Assembly (NCBI GenBank): GCA_942492995.1
Contig: OW818653.1
Coordinates: 1,650,001 to 1,682,000 of the forward strand
Length of the DNA: 32,000 bases
Direction: 5' to 3'
From: an uncultured Erysipelotrichaceae bacterium
Lineage (GTDB): Bacteria > Bacillota_I > Bacilli_A > Erysipelotrichales > Erysipelotrichaceae
The notes beneath the pieces were generated by a model. The model was given only the letters and a program-made list of their open reading frames with translations, did no database searches and was not told where the DNA came from. Made by a program: the position numbers and the translations under genes. Position 1 is the first letter of the stretch; each line of letters opens with the position of its first letter. Shown in pieces: positions 3,491-22,727 of this stretch.

Positions 3491-4816
3491 ATGATACAAG
3501 ATACGATCGTTTCACTATCTACTGCCTTAACGACTCAAGCGGTTTCGATTATTCGCTTTAGTGGGGATCGTGCGGTTGAAATAGCTGAAACACTGATAAA
3601 AAAGAATCTATCCAATCAGGACCATAGGCTTACCTATGGTTTTATTCATGAACCCCATACGAATTTAGTTGTGGATGAAGTAATCGTATTGGTTATGAAA
3701 GGACCACACAGTTATACCCGTGAAGATATTGTGGAAATACAGTGTCATGGGGGTGTTTTTGTGACCCAGAAGATATTAGGATTAGTTCTTGGATTAGGGG
3801 CACGGTTAGCGTATAACGGTGAGTTTACACAACGTGCTGTAATGAATGGAAGAATTGACTTAAGCCAAGCAGAAGCGATTAATGAGCTTGTGAATGCGGA
3901 TAGTGAACAAAGTGCACAACTAGCCATCGCAGGATTAAAAGGATCACTTAAGACATTGATTGATCCATTAAAAGAAGAATTATTAGGAATCATTGCGCAT
4001 ATTGAAGTAAATATTGATTATCCAGAATATGATATCGAAGAAATGACACGCCATACACTCTTACCGTTATGTATTGATTTCAAGGATAAATTAGAAGTAA
4101 TCGTTCATGAATCAAAGAGTGGAATCGAGATGAAGAATGGGATAAAGACTGCGATTATTGGGAAACCGAATGTTGGTAAATCATCCTTACTAAACGCACT
4201 TCTCAATGAAGATAAAGCAATCGTGACAGAAATACCAGGTACTACACGTGATGTTGTAGAAGGAACAGTACGTTTAAAGAACGTAAGTCTACATCTACTC
4301 GATACCGCTGGGATTAGACAAAGTGATGATATTGTGGAGAAGTTAGGAATCGATAAGACCTTCAAGATGATTGATGAAGCTGAACTTATTCTCTTCTTAG
4401 TTGATGCACAAAATGGAATGGATGAAGAAGAAATTAAACTATATGAAAGTATTGATCCAGCTAAAGTATTACTTGTCTATAATAAGAGTGATTTAATATC
4501 TGAGAAAAATCGCTTAGAAATAAGTGCGATGAATAAAGACATTAAACAATTAGTTGATGTGATTAACAATCGATTTGAAAGTCACCAATTCGTCTTCAAA
4601 CGTCCAGTCTTAAGTACACAACGTACCATAGGCTTAGCGATTCAAGCTCTTAATGCGATGAATCAAGCCATTGAATCAATAGAACTTGAAAATGAAATAG
4701 ATTTGATTAATATAGACTTAAGAGAAGCTTACCAAGCACTTTATTCTATTGGGTCAACTTCTTCTGACACAAACATTAACGATGAAATATTCAGTCGTTT
4801 CTGCCTAGGTAAATAA
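3491..4816 (+). CDS. mnmE: tRNA modification GTPase MnmE (TrmE)
   Basis: G-domain motifs GKPNVGKSSLLNAL, DTAGIR and NKSD, plus the C-terminal FCLGK motif. I chose ATG 3491 (MIQDTIV) as the start; the track starts 18 nt upstream. Confidence 0.9.
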   Translation: MIQDTIVSLSTALTTQAVSIIRFSGDRAVEIAETLIKKNLSNQDHRLTYGFIHEPHTNLVVDEVIVLVMKGPHSYTREDIVEIQCHGGVFVTQKILGLVLGLGARLAYNGEFTQRAVMNGRIDLSQAEAINELVNADSEQSAQLAIAGLKGSLKTLIDPLKEELLGIIAHIEVNIDYPEYDIEEMTRHTLLPLCIDFKDKLEVIVHESKSGIEMKNGIKTAIIGKPNVGKSSLLNALLNEDKAIVTEIPGTTRDVVEGTVRLKNVSLHLLDTAGIRQSDDIVEKLGIDKTFKMIDEAELILFLVDAQNGMDEEEIKLYESIDPAKVLLVYNKSDLISEKNRLEISAMNKDIKQLVDVINNRFESHQFVFKRPVLSTQRTIGLAIQALNAMNQAIESIELENEIDLINIDLREAYQALYSIGSTSSDTNINDEIFSRFCLGK

Positions 4817-4818
4817 AC

Positions 4819-5253
4819 ATGGAACTAACAATTAAACGAGTTATTGCGTATTGTATCGATGGATTAGTGGTAGGACTACCAAGTCTTATCCTTTCGCTTG
4901 CGTTTGGGATTATGCGTATTATATTAAGTCTATTACCATTTATGGGATTCTTGAGACATCCTTTTTGGGCGTTTCAATCGACGTCATTTATCTTGTTTAT
5001 CGTCTATGAATCCATCGCATTAATTGCGTTTAAGACGACGATTGGTAAATACTTAATGCATATTAAAGTTCGATCACTTGATTCAGATATCTCTAATTTC
5101 AGATATATCTTACGAACGGTTGTTAAAGGATTGTTTGCGCAATCATTCTTATTCTTACTTTCACTTATCTCTTTATTTATCATGATCTTTAACGATAAAC
5201 ATTCATCCTTACACGACATGATTGCACGGACTGAAGTCTATGAGATGGATTGA
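4819..5253 (+). CDS. RDD-family integral membrane protein
   Basis: 144-aa polytopic ORF with the N-terminal KRVIAYCIDGLV pattern (R..D) and a C-terminal HDMIARTEV, typical of RDD proteins. Confidence 0.55.
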   Translation: MELTIKRVIAYCIDGLVVGLPSLILSLAFGIMRIILSLLPFMGFLRHPFWAFQSTSFILFIVYESIALIAFKTTIGKYLMHIKVRSLDSDISNFRYILRTVVKGLFAQSFLFLLSLISLFIMIFNDKHSSLHDMIARTEVYEMD

Positions 5254-6004
5254 TACACACGCCCATCTAGCAGAAGATGAATTTAAGGATGATATTAATG
5301 AAGTTATCCAACGTGCGAAAGAACAGTATGTCGAAAAGATTGTTTTAATTGGATGTGAGATTGATGGGGCTAAGAAGGCATTAGCGTTAGCTCATACCAA
5401 TGATATGTTTGATGTGGCCATTGGCTTTCATCCAGGGGATGTTTTAAGTCATCATGATTATGATTTGATGTTTGAAATGATGAAGGATGAAAAGGTTAAG
5501 TTGATTGGAGAAATTGGCTTAGATTTTTATTGGGATAAAGATCCAGCACATCATCTTTTACAAGAAGAACTCTTTATTAAACAAATCGAATGGGCTAACC
5601 AACTAAATAAGCCTATTAGTATACATACTCGTGATGCGTCAAAACGCACATATGAACTGCTAAAACAATATCCAGTCAATAAAAAAGGGATAATGCATTG
5701 TTTTTCTGGAAGCTTAGAAATGGCTAGAGAATACGTTAAAATGGGATATTATATTTCTCTTGCAGGTCCTGTCACATTCAAAAATGCCCATGTCCCAAAG
5801 GATGTGGCTAAGTATATTGATATAAACTATCTCTTGATTGAGACAGATAGTCCGTATCTTACTCCTCATCCATTTCGTGGTAAACGTAATGAAAGCTTCT
5901 ATGTGGTTGAGACCGCTAAGGTTATTTCGGAATTGAGAAACATATCTCTTGAAGATTTAAGTATTATATTAGAGAAGAATTATCAAAGGCTAATCAATGG
6001 CTAA
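5240..6004 (+). CDS. tatD: TatD-family metal-dependent hydrolase/DNase (YabD-like)
   Basis: N-terminal WIDTHAHL metal-binding motif, GEIGLDFYW, SIHTRDA, GIMHCFSG and ETDSPYLTP. ATG 5240 overlaps the end of the RDD gene. Confidence 0.85.
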   Translation: MRWIDTHAHLAEDEFKDDINEVIQRAKEQYVEKIVLIGCEIDGAKKALALAHTNDMFDVAIGFHPGDVLSHHDYDLMFEMMKDEKVKLIGEIGLDFYWDKDPAHHLLQEELFIKQIEWANQLNKPISIHTRDASKRTYELLKQYPVNKKGIMHCFSGSLEMAREYVKMGYYISLAGPVTFKNAHVPKDVAKYIDINYLLIETDSPYLTPHPFRGKRNESFYVVETAKVISELRNISLEDLSIILEKNYQRLING

Positions 6005-6029
6005 AACTAAACTAGATGTTTAGTTTTTT
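6003..6029 (+). terminator. Rho-independent terminator after tatD
   Basis: AAAACTAAAC-tagat-GTTTAGTTTT hairpin followed by a T-run, starting at the stop codon. Confidence 0.6.
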
Positions 6030-6202
6030 ATTAGATATTTTTCAATATTCTCGTCACTTTTTTGTGTATAAAACAGATGCAAATCTATGACAATCTAATA
6101 TAATTAAATAGCATCAAAAACTCATAAACCATTGGAAGACATGTTTTTATCAACAAAGATTATAAGTGTCTGATAACAATCAGAACACAAAGGAGCTAGA
6201 AT

Positions 6203-16974: not shown

Positions 16975-17902
16975 TCGTTATTTGTATAACAATCTTTCCT
17001 TTTGAATGACCTTTTTGGAACGTATTAAATACACTAATACCATCACTGAATGGGACAACACGTTCGATAACAGGTTTGATTTTCTTTTGACTAACAAGGT
17101 GAATGATTGCTTCTAAATCATTTCGATTTGATTTAGAATTCAATATCTTAAACGTATTATTACCCAGGGAATATATTGGGCATAGTATAAGATTCTTAAT
17201 AAACTGTTTGATTGGTCCACCGACCATGACATAAGTACCATTTGGTTTTAATAATCGTTTATACAGAGATAATGGATATGCTCCATTTACCGCAATAATT
17301 AAATCAAATGTTTCTTTGAGTTGGTGTAAATCATCTTTCTTATAATTAATAACACTGTCCGCCCCAAGATCACGAGCCATATCGACATTATGCGTACTAC
17401 AAACCGCAGTCACATGAGCTTTGAAATTTTTCGCAAGTTGGATTACAAATGTTCCTACTCCGCCACTAGCCCCAACAATTAATACTTTATCGTTTTCTTT
17501 AACAGGTTTAAATAAAGTAAGAGCTTGAAGCGCAGTAGTCGATGCGACAGGACAACTTGACGCATCAATGAGTGATAATGTGTCTGGAACTTTTACTAGA
17601 TTACTTGCTTGAGCAACCGCATATTCCGCTAATCCACCAAATCCTGCATTGGATGTATCTACGACAACACGTTCCCCAATCGAAATTGAATGGACAGCTT
17701 GACCCAACTCTTCCACAATTCCAGCAATCGAATTGCCTAATATACCTGATTTTGGTAATCCAGAATTTAATTGAACTAAACGATAATCCCCCGCATTAAG
17801 AGATGTCGCCACAACCTTAATCAACACCTCATTTGGTAAAGGGATTGGTTTACTTACATCACTAAACATAAATGACTTATCTTTGTAGATTAGAGCTTTC
17901 AT
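16955..17902 (-). CDS. NAD(P)H-dependent medium-chain dehydrogenase/quinone oxidoreductase family protein
   Basis: 315 aa with the Rossmann motif VLIVGASGGVGTFVIQLAK and an N-terminal GroES-like domain (EVLIKVVATSLNAGD). Confidence 0.8.
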   Translation of the reverse strand: MKALIYKDKSFMFSDVSKPIPLPNEVLIKVVATSLNAGDYRLVQLNSGLPKSGILGNSIAGIVEELGQAVHSISIGERVVVDTSNAGFGGLAEYAVAQASNLVKVPDTLSLIDASSCPVASTTALQALTLFKPVKENDKVLIVGASGGVGTFVIQLAKNFKAHVTAVCSTHNVDMARDLGADSVINYKKDDLHQLKETFDLIIAVNGAYPLSLYKRLLKPNGTYVMVGGPIKQFIKNLILCPIYSLGNNTFKILNSKSNRNDLEAIIHLVSQKKIKPVIERVVPFSDGISVFNTFQKGHSKGKIVIQITNEINGK

Positions 17903-18129
17903 TTTGAATCATCCTTAACTTCATAATTGAATACTTTCGTGAGAGGGACATTAAACGCATCCGCTATGCGAAAAGCTAGTTCTAAAGTAGGTGAGTACTT
18001 ACCTGCTTCAATAGCCATAATAGTTTGACGTGAAACACCTGCCTTTTCCGCCAAGTCTTGTTGGGTCATTTCATTCGCAAAGAATCGAAGGGTACGTACT
18101 TGATTGGTGATGTTAAATTTTTTAGCCAT
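17899..18129 (-). CDS. Small XRE-family HTH transcriptional regulator
   Basis: MAKKFNITNQVRTLRFFANEMTQQDLAEKAGVSRQTIMAIEAGKYSPTLELAFRIA is a Cro/C1 HTH. An AAGGTG RBS lies 6 nt before ATG 18129. The stop overlaps the next ATG (ATGA). Confidence 0.8.
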   Translation of the reverse strand: MAKKFNITNQVRTLRFFANEMTQQDLAEKAGVSRQTIMAIEAGKYSPTLELAFRIADAFNVPLTKVFNYEVKDDSK

Positions 18130-18622
18130 TGCGTACACCTTTGAAATAGAAGAATAGATTGCTTAAGCCTTCACTTAAACTACCAACAAAGAAGGATAAG
18201 TACATGATGTTTAATACAACTACAATATTTCCACCAAACGCTAAATAGACAAGTGAACTAACAAACCCAACACTTACCACAATATATCCTACACGCATAG
18301 ATTTAAGCTCAATTAACTTATCCATTTCATCTTCAATCATCTCTAATTCAAGCTTACGATTAATCTCTTTATCATCTTTACTCTGTTCTTTTATCGCTAA
18401 GTTAATTGAGAGATAGATATGAAACACAATATGTAATACAATAGTAACGATAACCCCTACAACAATGTAAGTAACCATCTGTTTAGCCCAGTATTGTAGG
18501 TCATTTTCGATGATATTTCCAGCCTTATAATGGTTATAAATGCTTAAACAATAACTCACTAGAATGATTAAACTAGCAACTAAACTAGTGATGGTTTTCT
18601 TTGTCTGATATGTCATAAACAC
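18122..18622 (-). CDS. Integral membrane protein, unknown function (first gene of the XRE operon)
   Basis: 166 aa with about 4 TM helices and a charged central loop (KEQSKDDKEINRKLELEMIEDEMDK). An AAGGAGG RBS is present. Confidence 0.5.
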   Translation of the reverse strand: MFMTYQTKKTITSLVASLIILVSYCLSIYNHYKAGNIIENDLQYWAKQMVTYIVVGVIVTIVLHIVFHIYLSINLAIKEQSKDDKEINRKLELEMIEDEMDKLIELKSMRVGYIVVSVGFVSSLVYLAFGGNIVVVLNIMYLSFFVGSLSEGLSNLFFYFKGVRNG

Positions 18623-18809
18623 GTCCTCCTTACCTATTTGTTTATAAGTATATACTTAATGTAAAGTATATTAGACATAATGTCAATATATTTAATCATA
18701 AAATGTGTTAAAAACGTTTTTTAACTGATCAAAAAGTAAGTAAAAAGAGTGATTTTACCTCAAAAAACGTCGATTTTACCTCATTTTTAGGGTAAAAACG
18801 GCTCAAAAT

Positions 18810-18838
18810 TTGCCAGATAAGATAACTTGTGCTAAAAT
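18810..18838 (+). promoter_or_regulatory. Sigma-A promoter of the 3D-domain lipoprotein gene
   Basis: TTGCCA, a 17-nt spacer, then TAAAAT with an extended TGn (TGCTAAAAT). Confidence 0.55.
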
Positions 18839-18869
18839 CACGAAGTCATCAGATAAAGGAGACAAACGA

Positions 18870-19712
18870 TTGATAAAAACTAAAAAAGCATTGATTGCGG
18901 GAGTTATCCTACTTCTAGCAGCGTGCACACAAACAACGGAAAGTACTCATGTTGTGCTACAAAAAGCAGATCAGAACACAATATTGAGCGCCGCACTTGT
19001 TTCACCTTTTACGTTTGAAGAAAGCGTTGAGACGACTTATGATACGACACCTATTAAAACGGTACTCAATCCAATGGACAACACACGAACAGGTTATCCT
19101 TGGCTAATATCAAAAGTGAGTGAAGGTAGCGTAGGCTATACGGAAACTCGTTATCGTTCAACCTATGATAGTGAGGGGAATCTACTATCAAAAGAATACA
19201 TACCTGATTCGGAAACCTATACAGAAGGTAAACCAACCATTTACCAATATGGGGCTAAGGTTGCGAAGGGGGCATATTTCTACGCACGTTCAATCACTAA
19301 ATATGGATTTGATTGTACAGGCTGTGGAATCGGTTTAGATGGAAATGCAGGAACGTCTGCAGGTATACGTTTAAATGCGACGAGCATACGCCAATCCAAT
19401 GGAACATGGTTAGATGGAATTACCTATGATGGATACTATGTTGTGGCAGCGGATAAAGCTTACCCAAATTGTACAATTCTAGAGATTTCAAATCATACGT
19501 TCAGTGGTATGGGATTAACATCCGGGGTTCCGTTCTTAGCACTTGCTGTGGATCGTGGTGGCGCTATTACCACAAACAAATTAGATTTATTTGTCGGTAG
19601 TGAGAAGAATATTAACGTTGTGACAAATAAACGTACAGCAGATTCTAAAGTAACCGTCGTTGGATTCCTTAAGTGGACGAAAAATGGATTAGGTGAAAGA
19701 ATTTGTAAGTAG
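18870..19712 (+). CDS. Lipoprotein with a C-terminal 3D (DPBB, MltA/YabE/YuiC-like) domain; putative cell-wall-active protein
   Basis: An AAGGAG RBS precedes TTG 18870; the track's 18810 start overlaps the promoter. Lipobox LLLAAC. 3D-domain pattern: KYGFDCTGCG...GTSAG, VVAADKAYPNCT, ALAVDRGGAI, KLDLFVG. It occupies the yabE position upstream of rnmV-ksgA. Confidence 0.6.
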   Translation: MIKTKKALIAGVILLLAACTQTTESTHVVLQKADQNTILSAALVSPFTFEESVETTYDTTPIKTVLNPMDNTRTGYPWLISKVSEGSVGYTETRYRSTYDSEGNLLSKEYIPDSETYTEGKPTIYQYGAKVAKGAYFYARSITKYGFDCTGCGIGLDGNAGTSAGIRLNATSIRQSNGTWLDGITYDGYYVVAADKAYPNCTILEISNHTFSGMGLTSGVPFLALAVDRGGAITTNKLDLFVGSEKNINVVTNKRTADSKVTVVGFLKWTKNGLGERICK

Positions 19713-19731
19713 GTCATTATATATAATGACT

Positions 19732-19767
19732 AGACGCGTTGGCTACATGCCGACGCGTTTTATTATA
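19732..19767 (+). terminator. Possible terminator hairpin after the lipoprotein gene
   Basis: AGACGCGT-(13 nt)-ACGCGTTT can form an 8-bp GC-rich stem followed by a T/A-rich tail. The long loop lowers my confidence. Confidence 0.4.
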
Positions 19768-19958
19768 CCCCGAGAAGCCCCGAGAAGCCCCGAGAAGCCC
19801 CGAGAAGCCCCGAGAAGTCCCGAGAAGTCCCGAGAAGTCCCGAGAAGTCCCGAGAAGTCCCGAGAAGTCCCGAGAAGTCCCGAGAAGTCCCGAGAAGTCC
19901 CGAGAAGTCCCGAGAAGTCCCGAGAAGTCCCGAGAAGTCCCGAGAAGTCCCGAGAAGT
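19768..19958. repeat. Perfect 10-bp tandem repeat array, CCCGAGAAGY, about 19 copies
   Basis: Read directly from the sequence. There are 4 units of CGAGAAGCCC (from 19771), then 14 units of CGAGAAGTCC (from 19811), then a terminal partial unit CGAGAAGT. Apart from the single C/T block switch there are no other substitutions. Confidence 0.97.
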
Positions 19959-19968
19959 GTCTAAATTA

Positions 19969-19977
19969 TGATATAAT
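19969..19977 (+). promoter_or_regulatory. Extended -10 promoter (TGaTATAAT) of the AlbA_2-domain gene
   Basis: TGATATAAT lies 21 nt upstream of ATG 19999, and a GAGGG RBS lies at 19987-19991. The -35 position falls inside the repeat array and has no TTGACA-like hexamer. Confidence 0.5.
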
Positions 19978-19998
19978 TTTAACTAAGAGGGAAAATAT

Positions 19999-21354
19999 AT
20001 GGGTAATAAACATTTAGAAGGTGAGTCAAACTTAATTGAATATAAGCTAACTTTGCCTGAAGATAATACAAAGTGGTTAAAGAGTGTCGTATCTTTTAGT
20101 AATACTTCTGGGGGGAGATTGATCGTAGGTATTGAAGACTCAACATTGAAGGTAGTTGGAATTCAAGATGAAAGATCTAAAATAGAACAAAGAATAGTTG
20201 AATCAATACATAGCAATATTGAACCTAGACCAATAATCGATATAAGTTTTGAAAATTATGAAGATAAAGACATAGTAATAATTCAAGTAGCCAAAGGAAA
20301 TGAAACTCCATATTATATAAAAAAGGAGGGCATAGAGGAAGGGTGCTATGTTAGGTTTGGATCAACTGATCAAAAAGCAACAAATAGTCAAAGACTTGAA
20401 CTAAGACTTAATAGAAATAATGAAACATTTACAAGCGAAATCTATAATAAGAATGCTAAATTAGTTAAAAGAGATGATGCTGAGATATCAAAATTCCTTA
20501 GTTTTATAAATACTCAAATTAAAAGTGGCAAGAGTTTGAATGAAAATAAACTTTTGGAATGGAAGTTGCTTAGAAATGAATTTGATAATATTTATGCGAC
20601 TAACGGACTGATGTTATTAACAGAAAATCCATTCAGTCAAAGTTATATAAAAATAGGTGTGTTCAAAGGGGTAACAAAGTCTGAAATAAAGAAAGACTAT
20701 GTTATAAATGGCTCGATAATTGCACAATATTTTGAAGCGATGAAAGTTTTACTTAACGAATTGGAAGATGGTTATTCAATTGCTACAATTCGAGAAATGA
20801 AATATAAAGTTCCAGAAATAGCCATTAGAGAAATTTTAGCTAATGCAATAATTCATAGAAGTTATATAGATGAACAAACTATTAGAATTAGCATTTTTGA
20901 TAATAGAATAGAAATATATTCGCCAGGAACATTATTTGATGGTCTGCAAATAGAAGATGCTATAAATGGTCGTTCCAAACTTAGGAATCCTAATATAAGT
21001 GAAGTTTTCTATCATTTAGGTTTGATAGAGAAATGGGGATCAGGAATTCAAAGAGCGAATGAAGCATTGAGTAAAGAAAATTTTCTTCCTTTAATCTTCG
21101 AAGTCAATAATATACACGGGGTTAATGTTATTATTAAATTTGAAAAAATTGTAAATGAAGTTAATGAAAGTATGATAAATGTCGAAAACTATTTAGACTT
21201 TAAATCTACATTCACACGTAAAGATCTGGAGAGTGATTTAAATATCACTCAAGATCAAGCTAGATACTTGGTTGAAAAGTGGGTAAATAAAGGCAAAATA
21301 GTAAAAATAGGTGGAAGTTCAAAATCTAAGTATAGTGTAAACAAAATAAATTAA
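19999..21354 (+). CDS. AlbA_2 (Schlafen-like) domain protein with a C-terminal HATPase_c_4/RecG-C-like ATP-binding domain and wHTH
   Basis: N-terminus ESNLIEYKLTLPEDN...SFSNTSGGRLIVGIED...ETPYYIKK...YVRFGSTD is an AlbA_2-type domain. REILANAIIHRSY...IEIYSPGTL...RNPNISEVFYHLGLIEKWGSGIQR is the HATPase_c_4-type block. The tail looks like a wHTH. The gene is very AT-rich. Confidence 0.75.
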   Translation: MGNKHLEGESNLIEYKLTLPEDNTKWLKSVVSFSNTSGGRLIVGIEDSTLKVVGIQDERSKIEQRIVESIHSNIEPRPIIDISFENYEDKDIVIIQVAKGNETPYYIKKEGIEEGCYVRFGSTDQKATNSQRLELRLNRNNETFTSEIYNKNAKLVKRDDAEISKFLSFINTQIKSGKSLNENKLLEWKLLRNEFDNIYATNGLMLLTENPFSQSYIKIGVFKGVTKSEIKKDYVINGSIIAQYFEAMKVLLNELEDGYSIATIREMKYKVPEIAIREILANAIIHRSYIDEQTIRISIFDNRIEIYSPGTLFDGLQIEDAINGRSKLRNPNISEVFYHLGLIEKWGSGIQRANEALSKENFLPLIFEVNNIHGVNVIIKFEKIVNEVNESMINVENYLDFKSTFTRKDLESDLNITQDQARYLVEKWVNKGKIVKIGGSSKSKYSVNKIN

Positions 21355-21424
21355 TGTATTAAATATGAAATTCGAATTCATTAAACATTTTAGAAAATCT
21401 TTAGTTATAATTGTCAAATAATAG

Positions 21425-21581: not shown

Positions 21582-22727
21582 ATGATAAATCGAGCAGGGC
21601 AAACCATAAAGAATCTATCAGGGGCATCTACATATACTTCTTATCAACCTAATCCTTTGATGGATGATTTAGATATCCATATGGATAATGAGATGATAGA
21701 GCTATTAGTAAAGGCAAATAGGGAGATAGCGGTATTAGAACGTATCTCAAGTTACATACCTAATATTGATTTATTCATCACAATGTATTTACGTAAAGAA
21801 GCGCTTATGTCTTCACAAATAGAAGGAACACAGGCAACACTTGAAGATATTTTAGATCCAAGTATTGTCGAAAATTCTAATTTAGAAATAGTAGATGTTG
21901 TTAATGTGGTGAAGGCAACACATTTTTCGATGAATCGATTAAATGAATTACCTTTATGTAATCGACTCATAAAAGAAACGCATTCTATCCTTATGGATGG
22001 GATAAGAGGTGGGGATAAGAGTCCTGGAGAGTTTCGACTTTCGCAGAATTGGTTAGGTGGATTTGGGAGTACGTTAAAGACTGCACAATATATTCCACCT
22101 AATGTACAAGATATGTTAAATGGAATGTCAGATTTAGAGAAATATATGAATACAGAAAGTAGTGTGGATCCATTAATCAGAGCTGGATTAATACATTACC
22201 AATTTGAAACAATTCATCCTTTTTTAGATGGTAATGGAAGAATCGGAAGATTGTTAATTCAACTATACTTAACGCAAACTAAAACGTTAGTATTACCTTC
22301 CTTAAGTATTTCGTATTATTTGAAGAGATATCGCTCGGAATACTATGATCGATTAACTGATGTACGACGTACAGGGCAGTATGAACAATGGCTTAAATTC
22401 TTTTTAAGAGCGGTGTATGAATCTGCGGAAAGTGCAAATTTAACGATTAAACAAATGATGTTTCTGAACGAAATTAATACTGAAGTTATTCTATCATTTG
22501 GACGTATCTCATATACTGGATTAAAGTTACTTAGATATATAGAAGAGAATCCTATTGTTGAAGTTAGAAAGACTTCTATAGATTTAGGTTTAACATTTGC
22601 GACTGTATCTAAATGTGTTGATCTATTTGTTAAACACGGAATTCTAATTCAATATAAAGGCCATAAAAGAAATCGATTGTTTGCCTATGATGCGTATTTA
22701 CAATTATTAAGAGAAGGAACGGAGTAG
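21582..22727 (+). CDS. Fic-family protein (class II, N-terminal inhibitory helix, C-terminal wHTH); putative AMP/NMP-transferase
   Basis: Fic active-site motif HPFLDGNGRIGR. N-terminal (S/T)xxxE(G/N) inhibitory motif in MSSQIEGT. The C-terminal segment LGLTFATVSKCVDLFVKHGIL is wHTH-like. Confidence 0.85.
   Translation: MINRAGQTIKNLSGASTYTSYQPNPLMDDLDIHMDNEMIELLVKANREIAVLERISSYIPNIDLFITMYLRKEALMSSQIEGTQATLEDILDPSIVENSNLEIVDVVNVVKATHFSMNRLNELPLCNRLIKETHSILMDGIRGGDKSPGEFRLSQNWLGGFGSTLKTAQYIPPNVQDMLNGMSDLEKYMNTESSVDPLIRAGLIHYQFETIHPFLDGNGRIGRLLIQLYLTQTKTLVLPSLSISYYLKRYRSEYYDRLTDVRRTGQYEQWLKFFLRAVYESAESANLTIKQMMFLNEINTEVILSFGRISYTGLKLLRYIEENPIVEVRKTSIDLGLTFATVSKCVDLFVKHGILIQYKGHKRNRLFAYDAYLQLLREGTE

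Follow-up and report, generated by a model that had tools for sequence, protein, structure and literature searches.

The window analysed here, a stretch of 32,000 nucleotides (nt) from contig OW818653.1 of an uncultured Erysipelotrichaceae bacterium, contains a head-to-tail array of perfect 10-base-pair (bp) repeats of the CCCGAGAAGY type directly in front of a gene encoding a prokaryotic Schlafen protein (pSlfn). Comparison with orthologous loci indicates that the array is very probably a conserved cis-module of the pSlfn gene, and the alignments show its copy number to be the fastest-changing character of the locus. The function proposed from these comparisons is that of a slippage-prone operator array, read by the winged helix-turn-helix (wHTH) domain of the gene's own product for autoregulation, a reading which is given about an even chance of being correct.

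Orthologue DNA was recovered by a homologous-protein search, an exact-protein look-up and one metagenome scan, and the closest relatives of the pSlfn were found in Acholeplasma-like Mollicutes. The loci covered, designated L followed by a number, comprised the window, L008, L009, L019, L013, L015, L016, L017/18, L010/11/20, L095-98, L099/100, L101-104, L022, L023 and L105-107. An array of 10-bp period abutted an extended -10 promoter element in 14 of the 14 orthologue lineages with upstream DNA, at 47-99 % amino acid (aa) identity of the protein, and copy numbers over the family ranged from two (L095) to about 21. In 187,432 bp of these loci, all 32 entries reported by Tandem Repeats Finder (TRF) with a period of 9-11 and at least three copies were located within 120 bp upstream of the pSlfn start codon; likewise, every array of at least three copies with a period of at least 4 fell in that 120-bp interval, and TRF found no such arrays elsewhere in this Acholeplasma-like DNA. 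Relatives from other phyla with 30-35 % identity showed no upstream periodicity.

The array and the pSlfn gene occur together in at least seven different gene neighbourhoods. Depending on the lineage, the module is flanked by a 3D-domain gene, gyrA, a DDE transposase together with an nSTAND nucleoside triphosphatase (NTPase), transketolase and an MqsR/A-like pair, guaA and AbiEi, citrate lyase genes and a redox gene, or an unknown gene of 728 aa. No fixed upstream element is shared between these genomic contexts. Since the array, the promoter and the gene are shared over differing surroundings, they behave as one heritable module. An earlier note, made on this DNA from its sequence, had asked whether the repeat always accompanies AlbA_2 and Fic genes: it accompanies AlbA_2 in every orthologue lineage examined, and it follows neither Fic, which adjoins the pSlfn gene only in the window's lineage, nor the upstream 3D-domain gene. 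The small Xre-type helix-turn-helix (HTH) gene of the window is not a constant neighbour of the array either.

The repeat units of the different lineages share a core, CnC-nAGA. C1, C3 and G6 are present in the consensus units of 14 of the 14 lineages, and A5 and A7 in 12 of them. Positions 2, 9 and 10 are free, and position 10 varies inside 12 of the 14 arrays; being the freest in the family, it makes the variable Y of the window the least constrained position of the unit. Degenerate arrays that are hardly able to slip (L010, L016, L022 and L105) have retained the core. The geometry is similarly conserved, as the distance from the first C of the proximal unit to TATAAT is exactly 15 nt in seven lineages and 23-27 nt in the rest (23 nt in the window), and a TGnTAYAAT extended -10 is found at the same relative place in 12 of the 14. 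Due to this fixed offset the last one or two units occupy the spacer/-35 region of the promoter. Within any one lineage the junction of array and promoter does not change. Reading CCCGAG as an AvaI-like (CYCGRG) site or as a methylation site was considered and dropped, as the CCCTAG and CTCACG lineages do not fit.

Copy number, by contrast, differs between sequences which are otherwise nearly or fully identical. L095 carries two units and L096/L098 carry five, with identical flanks on both sides (900/900 and 900/900, 1800/1800 in total); L010 and L011 differ by one 19-bp double unit between identical flanks; and the window and L008 have 19 and 6 units, respectively, with flanks of 98.0 % and 99.7 % identity. 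Variant units cluster in blocks (C-type before T-type in the window, G before A in L099), which matches the expectation from local duplication. Within the 3D-domain gene context the 3' halves of the units have been homogenised differently, to AAGT in the window, L008 and L009 and to ATAA in L019, and such different outcomes at the same site are a case of concerted evolution. Several short-read contigs (L012, L014 and L102-104) end inside the array. These pairs support recent expansion or contraction by slippage, of which the earlier note had suggested the expansion. Its statement that the repeat is not an ancient degenerate one holds for the window copy, which is freshly homogenised, and fails for the element as such, which is old, given that the core extends down to 47 % protein identity.

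The array of the window was described by TRF with a period of 10, 19.0 copies, 99 % matches and a score of 352, and every other array in the window had 3.6 copies or fewer. Its high G + C content, noted before as about 60 %, is 62.1 % in comparison to 33.6 % for the window. The sequence CCCGAGAAG occurs 19 times in the window, always within the array and never on the opposite strand, and outside the array 15 near-matches to the unit (up to two mismatches) were observed in the window against a chance expectation of 12.3 ± 3.6. The earlier note correctly described a single variable position with the variants sorted into a C block and then a T block; four C-type units were counted as stated, and 15 complete T-type units were found instead of 14 plus a partial one. 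The array starts at 19769, base 19768 being one additional C, and the gap to the -10 hexamer is 13 bases (19959-19971), not 14. Two open reading frames of 92 aa span the array (19693-19971 and 19739-20017), and the view that these PREAPRSPEK frames are artefacts was upheld, because the repeat is stop-free. A CRISPR array was rejected, as the units are strictly contiguous with no unique spacers between them.

At the orthologous site L008 and L009 carry the T-type unit six and five times, respectively. C-type units are present in neither of these arrays, and the C-type is therefore a derived variant that was amplified later. The arrays at the same site in these independent assemblies also make an assembly artefact unlikely; the window's own count of 19 in a 190-bp perfect repeat is uncertain and provisional, pending read-level confirmation. 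The features of the window and the arrays of the orthologous loci are given in Table 1.

Table 1. Features of the window around the pSlfn gene, and the repeat arrays found upstream of orthologous genes
Feature or locus	Coordinates in the window	Strand	Repeat unit	Copies	Remarks
Tandem array	19769-19958	+	CCCGAGAAGY	19	Complete perfect 10-mers, head-to-tail
Distal block, C-type	19769-19808	+	CCCGAGAAGC	4	
Proximal block, T-type	19809-19958	+	CCCGAGAAGT	15	
Upstream 3D-domain gene (yabE-like)	18810-19712	+			300 aa
Terminator-like hairpin of the 3D-domain gene	19732-19760	+			5' boundary of the element; U-rich tail after it
Non-repeat spacer GTCTAAATTA	19959-19968	+			10 bp, between array and promoter
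Extended -10 TGATATAAT	19969-19977	+			Predicted promoter; TATAAT hexamer at 19972-19977
Ribosome-binding site AGAGGGA	19986-19992	+			6 nt 5' of the ATG (19999)
pSlfn gene	19999-21354	+			451 aa; SLFN_AlbA_2, HATPase_c_4 (HisKinase-like) and C-terminal wHTH
Ex4ExK nuclease motif, E9-SNLI-E14-Y-K16	20023-20046	+			Intact
Codons of the C-terminal wHTH, residues 395-451	21181-21351	+			Recognition helix 418-430, QDQARYLVEKWVN; proposed array reader
Fic gene after pSlfn	21582-22727	+			PADLOC SoFic, E = 2.5e-107; Fic_N plus Fic
L008			CCCGAGAAGT	6	99 % aa identity
L009			CCCGAGAAGT	5	One degenerate unit in addition; 75 % aa identity
L019			CCCGAGATAA	4	56 % aa identity; 3D-gene context as in the window
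L013 (Alteracholeplasma palmae J233)			CCCGAGATTT	6	After gyrA
L015			CCCGAGTTTT	about 5	
L016			CCCTAGATYT / CCCCACATTT	6	
L017/18			CCCTAGATTY	7	
L010/11/12/20			CCCTAGATT(C) / CCCTAAATG	6-9	After transposase
L095-98			CCCGAGAAAC	2 or 5	
L099/100			CCCGAGCRAC	8	G-block, then A-block
L101-104			CACGAGATAA	about 20	
L022			CGCGAGATAA-like	8	
L023			CTCACGATTT	about 14-16	
L105-107			CTCGTGATTT-like	about 11-14	

The sequence and the predicted fold agree with the earlier placement of the array between a terminator region and the extended -10 at 19969-19977, and the region upstream of the AlbA_2 promoter core does consist entirely of the array. RNA folding of 19713-19775 gave -26 kcal/mol (z = -6.7, with 0 of 200 shuffles equally stable), and the hairpin ends 8 nt before the array starts. 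At the equivalent site L009 and L019 have a hairpin of different sequence followed by a T-run. A simple terminator scan did not call the hairpin at 19732-19760 because its T-run is partly paired, and a consensus promoter scan did not call the pSlfn promoter because there is no -35: no -35-like hexamer could be recognised there. The promoter was thus assigned by cross-lineage conservation and the hairpin by RNA folding. The spacer between array and promoter, which in the window puts the first C of the proximal unit 23 nt from TATAAT, is also present in L008, and L009 has 'TA' in its place. The start codon follows the -10 after only 21 nt, too short a distance for a regulatory leader, and since an Rfam search of the entire window found nothing, the array shows no sign of being an RNA element.

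By its domain content the downstream gene is a predicted pSlfn of the HisKinase-HTH class. The protein matched the Pfam families PF04326 (SLFN_AlbA_2; 1.2e-23) and PF13749 (HATPase_c_4; 4e-21), and a fold search matched the uncharacterised structure 3lmm and the N-terminal domains of SLFN11, 13, 14 and 5. In the Ex4ExK motif, by which PMC13056530 defines the Schlafen nuclease, none of 40 homologues departs from Y15 and K16, and E9 and E14 are close to invariant. The AlphaFold2 (AF2) model, with a mean predicted local distance difference test score (pLDDT) of 87.9, places a low-confidence linker (386-391) between the body and the C-terminal wHTH, which consists of helices 407-414 and 418-430 and wing strands 434-437 and 444-447. 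The last 66 residues match the Pfam FeoC wHTH family (7.3e-5, 23.3 bits against a cut-off of 21), and A421, R422 and E426 of the recognition helix are invariant in the same 40 homologues. According to PMC13056530 (Nat Microbiol 2026), pSlfns have recently been shown to be phage-defence nucleases acting on tRNA (tRNases), and the HisKinase-HTH architecture accounts for 19.2 % of prokaryotic Schlafens. The class described there resembles the present protein in having Slfn/AlbA_2 with Ex4ExK, HATPase_c_4 and HTH domains, and here a SoFic gene adjoins. The experiments of that study concerned other architectures, with DUF262-Slfn (RorSlfn5) as one of two genes giving defence, and in the passages searched it names neither a DNA ligand for the HTH nor a promoter repeat.

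The Fic gene is followed by rnmV, ksgA and ispE, which identify the locus as chromosomal. The pSlfn and Fic genes have a G + C content of about 28-29 %, sit between the 3D-domain gene and rnmV-ksgA-ispE, and therefore make up a small putative defence islet within conserved chromosomal surroundings; the low G + C content of the 20-22 kb region fits this interpretation. The defence-like character assigned earlier to the downstream gene is thus supported, with a pSlfn identified and a SoFic match next to it. No match to 18700-21400 was found in plasmid and phage collections by megablast, a scan of viral contigs with the protein alignment gave no relative, and no exact-sequence records were found for the AlbA_2, KsgA and Fic proteins of the window. 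Conflict genes lie beside orthologous Schlafens in L010/L011 (6677-9775), L095-98 (4567-6071) and L105 (4889-5086), namely a Metallophos-nSTAND NTPase (1032 aa), an AbiEii fragment, a SocA_Panacea/MqsA-MqsR-like pair and AbiEi_4, consistent with residence in defence islands. Further upstream in the window, two pairs of direct repeats of about 21 bp (TAATGTAAAGTATATTAAACA, 2.1 copies, and AAAAAAAGTCGATTTTACCTC, 2.0 copies; 18657-18701 and 18742-18783) lie in the divergent intergenic region between a 166-aa gene of unknown family (18122-18622, minus strand) and the 3D-domain gene (from 18810, plus strand). These repeats possibly serve as operators for the small Xre-type HTH gene (17899-18138, minus strand).

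Three loci of the pSlfn clade deserve separate mention. In L019 the orthologue (1477-2835, 56 % identity) contains two in-frame stops, one at codon 8 and the other within ...VAI*EILANA; the second recurs in another sample (L025, 1327-2142), in which the 5' part is a radical-SAM-like fragment. About 70 bp upstream of this chimeric radical-SAM-like/HATPase_c_4 open reading frame, L025 has an array of 13-bp period (AAACTACTAAGAA, 1178-1255, about six copies, 69 % matches). L024 (about 380-1726) encodes a 51 %-identical homologue which matches from residue 69 and is devoid of the Ex4ExK motif; TGATATAAT is present there with no 10-bp array upstream, which makes it the only clade member seen without the array. 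The 5' region of this homologue has evidently been replaced.

Outside the clade, an 11-bp ATGACGGGATT near distant pSlfn relatives from gut metagenomes (30-35 % identity; L086, 2657-2802; L032-L094, around 2660-2755) was considered as a reversed array and rejected, as it belongs to a coding repeat of 42 bp (14 aa; ...SDDGIVTGLRRD...) inside the gene, in the linker before the C-terminal HTH. TRF counted 3 to 11 copies of this repeat across the contigs, and the linker length in these relatives appears to be polymorphic. A scan of GTDB representative genomes for three units gave seven hits, all in high-GC Actinobacteria, Alphaproteobacteria or Nitrospirota; no Schlafen homologue was found near them and they were rejected as relatives of the locus. 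The 10-mer of the array (CCCGAGAAGN) forms 3-9 tandem copies in a few high-GC genomes, of Streptomyces, Kitasatospora, Corynebacterium and an alphaproteobacterial metagenome-assembled genome (L001, 444-494; L005, 2309-2347; L006, 2886-2917; L004, 5807-5898, minus strand; L007, 7246-7316, minus strand). In L001, L005 and L006 this array stops 0-12 nt before an ATG, and the L001 and L006 reading frames resemble, by eye, alaS and an aminopeptidase.

Two features of a tandem-operator or iteron array read by the adjoining gene's product (TubR-tubC, ParR-parC or omega-heptad type) were found at the locus: at least three direct repeats at the promoter in the 14 lineages (with a minimum of two, in L095) and a DNA-binding domain encoded by the adjoining gene (AF2, Pfam). 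The repeat is also clearly co-inherited with pSlfn across lineages. It is proposed that the C-terminal winged helix of the pSlfn binds to each unit and reads the CnC-nAGA core. Monomers or dimers would line up head-to-tail on one side of the helix, at roughly one per turn, and would occupy the -35/spacer region; for this promoter the extended -10 would be sufficient. The expected outcome would be autoregulation, most likely repression, of a potentially toxic tRNase. Repression is favoured over activation on two grounds: with its perfect TGnTATAAT the promoter has no need of an activator, and the product is a potentially toxic nuclease. TrlG of Photorhabdus, a protein of the same domain architecture, causes growth arrest when induced (bioRxiv 10.1101/2020.06.02.129163). 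A binding array for one of the two adjacent wHTH proteins had been among the suggestions of the earlier note, beside a contingency switch or rheostat and a transcriptional insulator. Of these three roles a binding array for the AlbA_2-wHTH protein is now the favoured one, and a Fic-binding array is unsupported since Fic is present only in the window's lineage.

Replication slippage would add or remove whole units and thereby change the number of sites, not the promoter geometry. With a unit of one helical turn and a fixed junction, only the site number is altered, and the array would either set the level of expression as a rheostat, rather than switch it on and off, or represent tolerated neutral drift in length. 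That copy-number change would leave the core promoter unaffected, as predicted earlier, agrees with the constancy of the junction within lineages. Of the contingency switch or rheostat proposed at the same time, the rheostat is possible and an ON/OFF switch is unlikely, because unit gain or loss leaves the spacing unchanged; the altered spacing or phasing which characterises classical promoter phase variation was not found here.

Several points weigh against autoregulation through the product's own wHTH. Placing 52 kDa of protein on each 10-bp unit would mean crowding, and it may be that only every second unit is bound, or only a tethered wHTH engages the DNA. Four perfect CCCGAGATAA units persist at the decaying L019 orthologue with its two in-frame stops. 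The residue that begins the recognition helix, 418, tracks unit base 4 within one clade: Q, T or E accompanies G, and H or L accompanies T. Y423, in turn, is replaced by K or T where unit base 2 is not C. This covariation would favour reading by the wHTH, but its support is weak, as it is confounded with phylogeny over few lineages. The unit register in the most divergent clade (L023, L105) was picked by best match, and copy numbers of long perfect arrays are uncertain where the assembly comes from short reads, as for L101, L023 and possibly the window. The reader could instead be a host factor common to Acholeplasmataceae. Finally, the geometry of the array also resembles that of PhoB-type activator sites replacing a -35. 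The pho boxes, read by winged-helix regulators of the PhoB/OmpR type, are head-to-tail direct repeats of 11-bp period, usually 2-6 units in fixed number, which end a few bp upstream of the -10 and replace the -35, and the phosphorylated response regulator activates from them. The array shares with them the head-to-tail arrangement, the period of about one helical turn, the end near the -10 and, as a prediction, the winged-helix reader. It differs in that pSlfn has no receiver domain and that the perfect extended -10 makes an activator unnecessary.

The array could act without any protein, as a contingency locus or rheostat in which the curvature or stiffness of phased repeat DNA influences the promoter and slippage tunes it stochastically. 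The polymorphic copy number between otherwise identical sequences, the perfect and block-sorted units, and the A/T-rich 3' half of the unit, phased with the C-run in most lineages as in a recipe for anisotropic bending, would all be expected in this case. Known promoter contingency loci of this sort are the 7-bp repeats of Haemophilus influenzae hmw1A/hmw2A, the TAAA tract of Neisseria meningitidis nadA and the GAA tract of Mycoplasma gallisepticum vlhA, and the array is like them in being a tandem repeat upstream of a promoter whose length outpaces the change of its flanks, with a precedent in Mollicutes. Those tracts, however, change spacing or phasing or regulate surface antigens, whereas the array keeps its helical phase and a constant -10 junction, so that unit gain and loss provides no obvious switch, and the gene regulated here encodes a predicted intracellular defence nuclease. 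Moreover, C1, C3 and G6 are invariant while the A/T content is not (the window unit ends in AAGT), which argues for base-specific reading, and arrays too degenerate to slip readily have still been maintained (L010, L016, L022, L105). A purely structural role is therefore considered rather unlikely. An operator for a different regulator encoded by Acholeplasma-like hosts, neither pSlfn nor Fic, is regarded as unlikely. All arrays were found within one taxonomic neighbourhood, orthologues of 30-35 % identity in other phyla lack them, and the conserved core could be the motif of a single host factor. Such a shared factor would predict a single motif, yet unit base 2 and bases 4-5 differ by lineage; no other unit copies beyond chance were found in the 32-kb window or in 187 kb of related loci, and the only constant partner is the wHTH-bearing gene itself.

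It is very unlikely that the array is functionless hitch-hiking DNA prone to slippage, or an assembly artefact. Perfect repeats do expand by themselves, the array persists beside the pseudogenised L019 orthologue, and arrays break short-read assemblies (L012, L014, L102-104). Neutral arrays, on the other hand, would decay and not be re-created at one gene, and here 14 lineages, down to 47 % protein identity, carry the array with a conserved core and -10 offset while it is absent elsewhere; an artefact is hard to reconcile with its presence in independent assemblies from JGI, ENA, NCBI and Logan. The template strand, (GGGACTTCTC)n, fits the pattern G3N7G3N7G3N7G3, and a G-quadruplex or i-motif fold could modulate transcription. 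The window's only canonical motifs of this type lie within the array, on its bottom strand, with 18 overlapping starts counted at 19800-19951, and CCC or CCCC begins the unit in 10 of the 14 lineages. Yet four lineages (CACGAGATAA, CGCGAGATAA, CTCACGATTT and CTCGTGATTT, with CAC, CGC or CTC units) have kept the array with no G-run, 7-nt loops are at the weak limit of the motif, and ViennaRNA with the G-quadruplex option did not choose the fold, an indicative result as RNA parameters were applied; this explanation is highly improbable. Self-folding of the bottom strand (-41.6 kcal/mol) was dismissed as a G-U artefact of the RNA parameters which is irrelevant to duplex DNA.

A partition centromere was also tried and rejected, since the neighbours are Fic, rnmV, ksgA and the 3D-domain gene with no ParA, ParM or TubZ NTPase; no partition NTPase motor was found in the orthologous loci either. 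The closest parallel of that kind is the TubR-tubC system of type III plasmid or prophage partition, in which TubR, itself a wHTH protein, binds blocks of direct repeats immediately in front of its own gene; the nucleoprotein complex extends over the promoter and the operon is repressed (PMC6009700). The present locus likewise has several direct repeats directly upstream of a winged-helix protein gene, the binding here being predicted. It differs from TubR-tubC in having no TubZ, ParA or ParM gene nearby, and with no motor gene near the array a centromere role is not indicated; in addition, the array consists of contiguous 10-mers and tubC of split blocks, and pSlfn is a 451-aa nuclease-ATPase fusion, whereas TubR is a small dedicated DNA-binding protein. 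In the PctxAB promoter of Vibrio cholerae, TTTTGAT heptads vary in number and modulate promoter activity, and they recruit ToxR, ToxT and H-NS (bioRxiv 10.1101/2021.05.14.444153). There, too, a short tandem repeat forms the upstream promoter region and the number of units is strain-variable. The heptad, however, is 7 bp long, AT-rich and served by regulators encoded elsewhere, in contrast to the GC-rich 10-bp array whose candidate reader is the product of the downstream gene. The ctxAB heptads are present in 3-8 copies.

An extension of autoregulation by the pSlfn wHTH was also considered. The array could be the physiological ligand of the HTH 'sensor' end of the protein, with inactive nuclease parked on it as a cooperative filament and released by an infection cue; this is thought quite unlikely. 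The cue might be ATP turnover by the GHKL-like domain, a phage protein or competing phage DNA, and release would de-repress the gene and free active tRNase simultaneously. If this were true, the copy number (2 to about 21) would correspond to the size of a pre-loaded pool and would provide a heritable, slippage-tunable threshold for an abortive-infection-type response.

The literature searches brought up no description of the array or its motif, nor of promoter repeats associated with pSlfns. As judged from the lineages compared, the locus exemplifies an operator-like tandem array of hypervariable length that accompanies a clade of putative defence genes encoding HisKinase-HTH Schlafens, and it is a natural example, in a Mollicute, of a hypervariable promoter repeat on a predicted intracellular defence gene and not on a surface antigen. 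About a fifth of pSlfns carry a HisKinase-like domain together with an HTH, according to PMC13056530, and the locus offers a testable candidate for their DNA partner: the CnC-nAGA unit of 10 bp, which recurs head-to-tail in the promoter of the gene itself and is represented in at least 13 other orthologue lineages. The allelic series of 2, 4, 5, 6, 8, 19 and about 20 units is suited to the question whether repeat number tunes the expression of a toxic effector. Should the array be neutral, it would still be useful as a strain-typing marker and as a known cause of assembly breaks.

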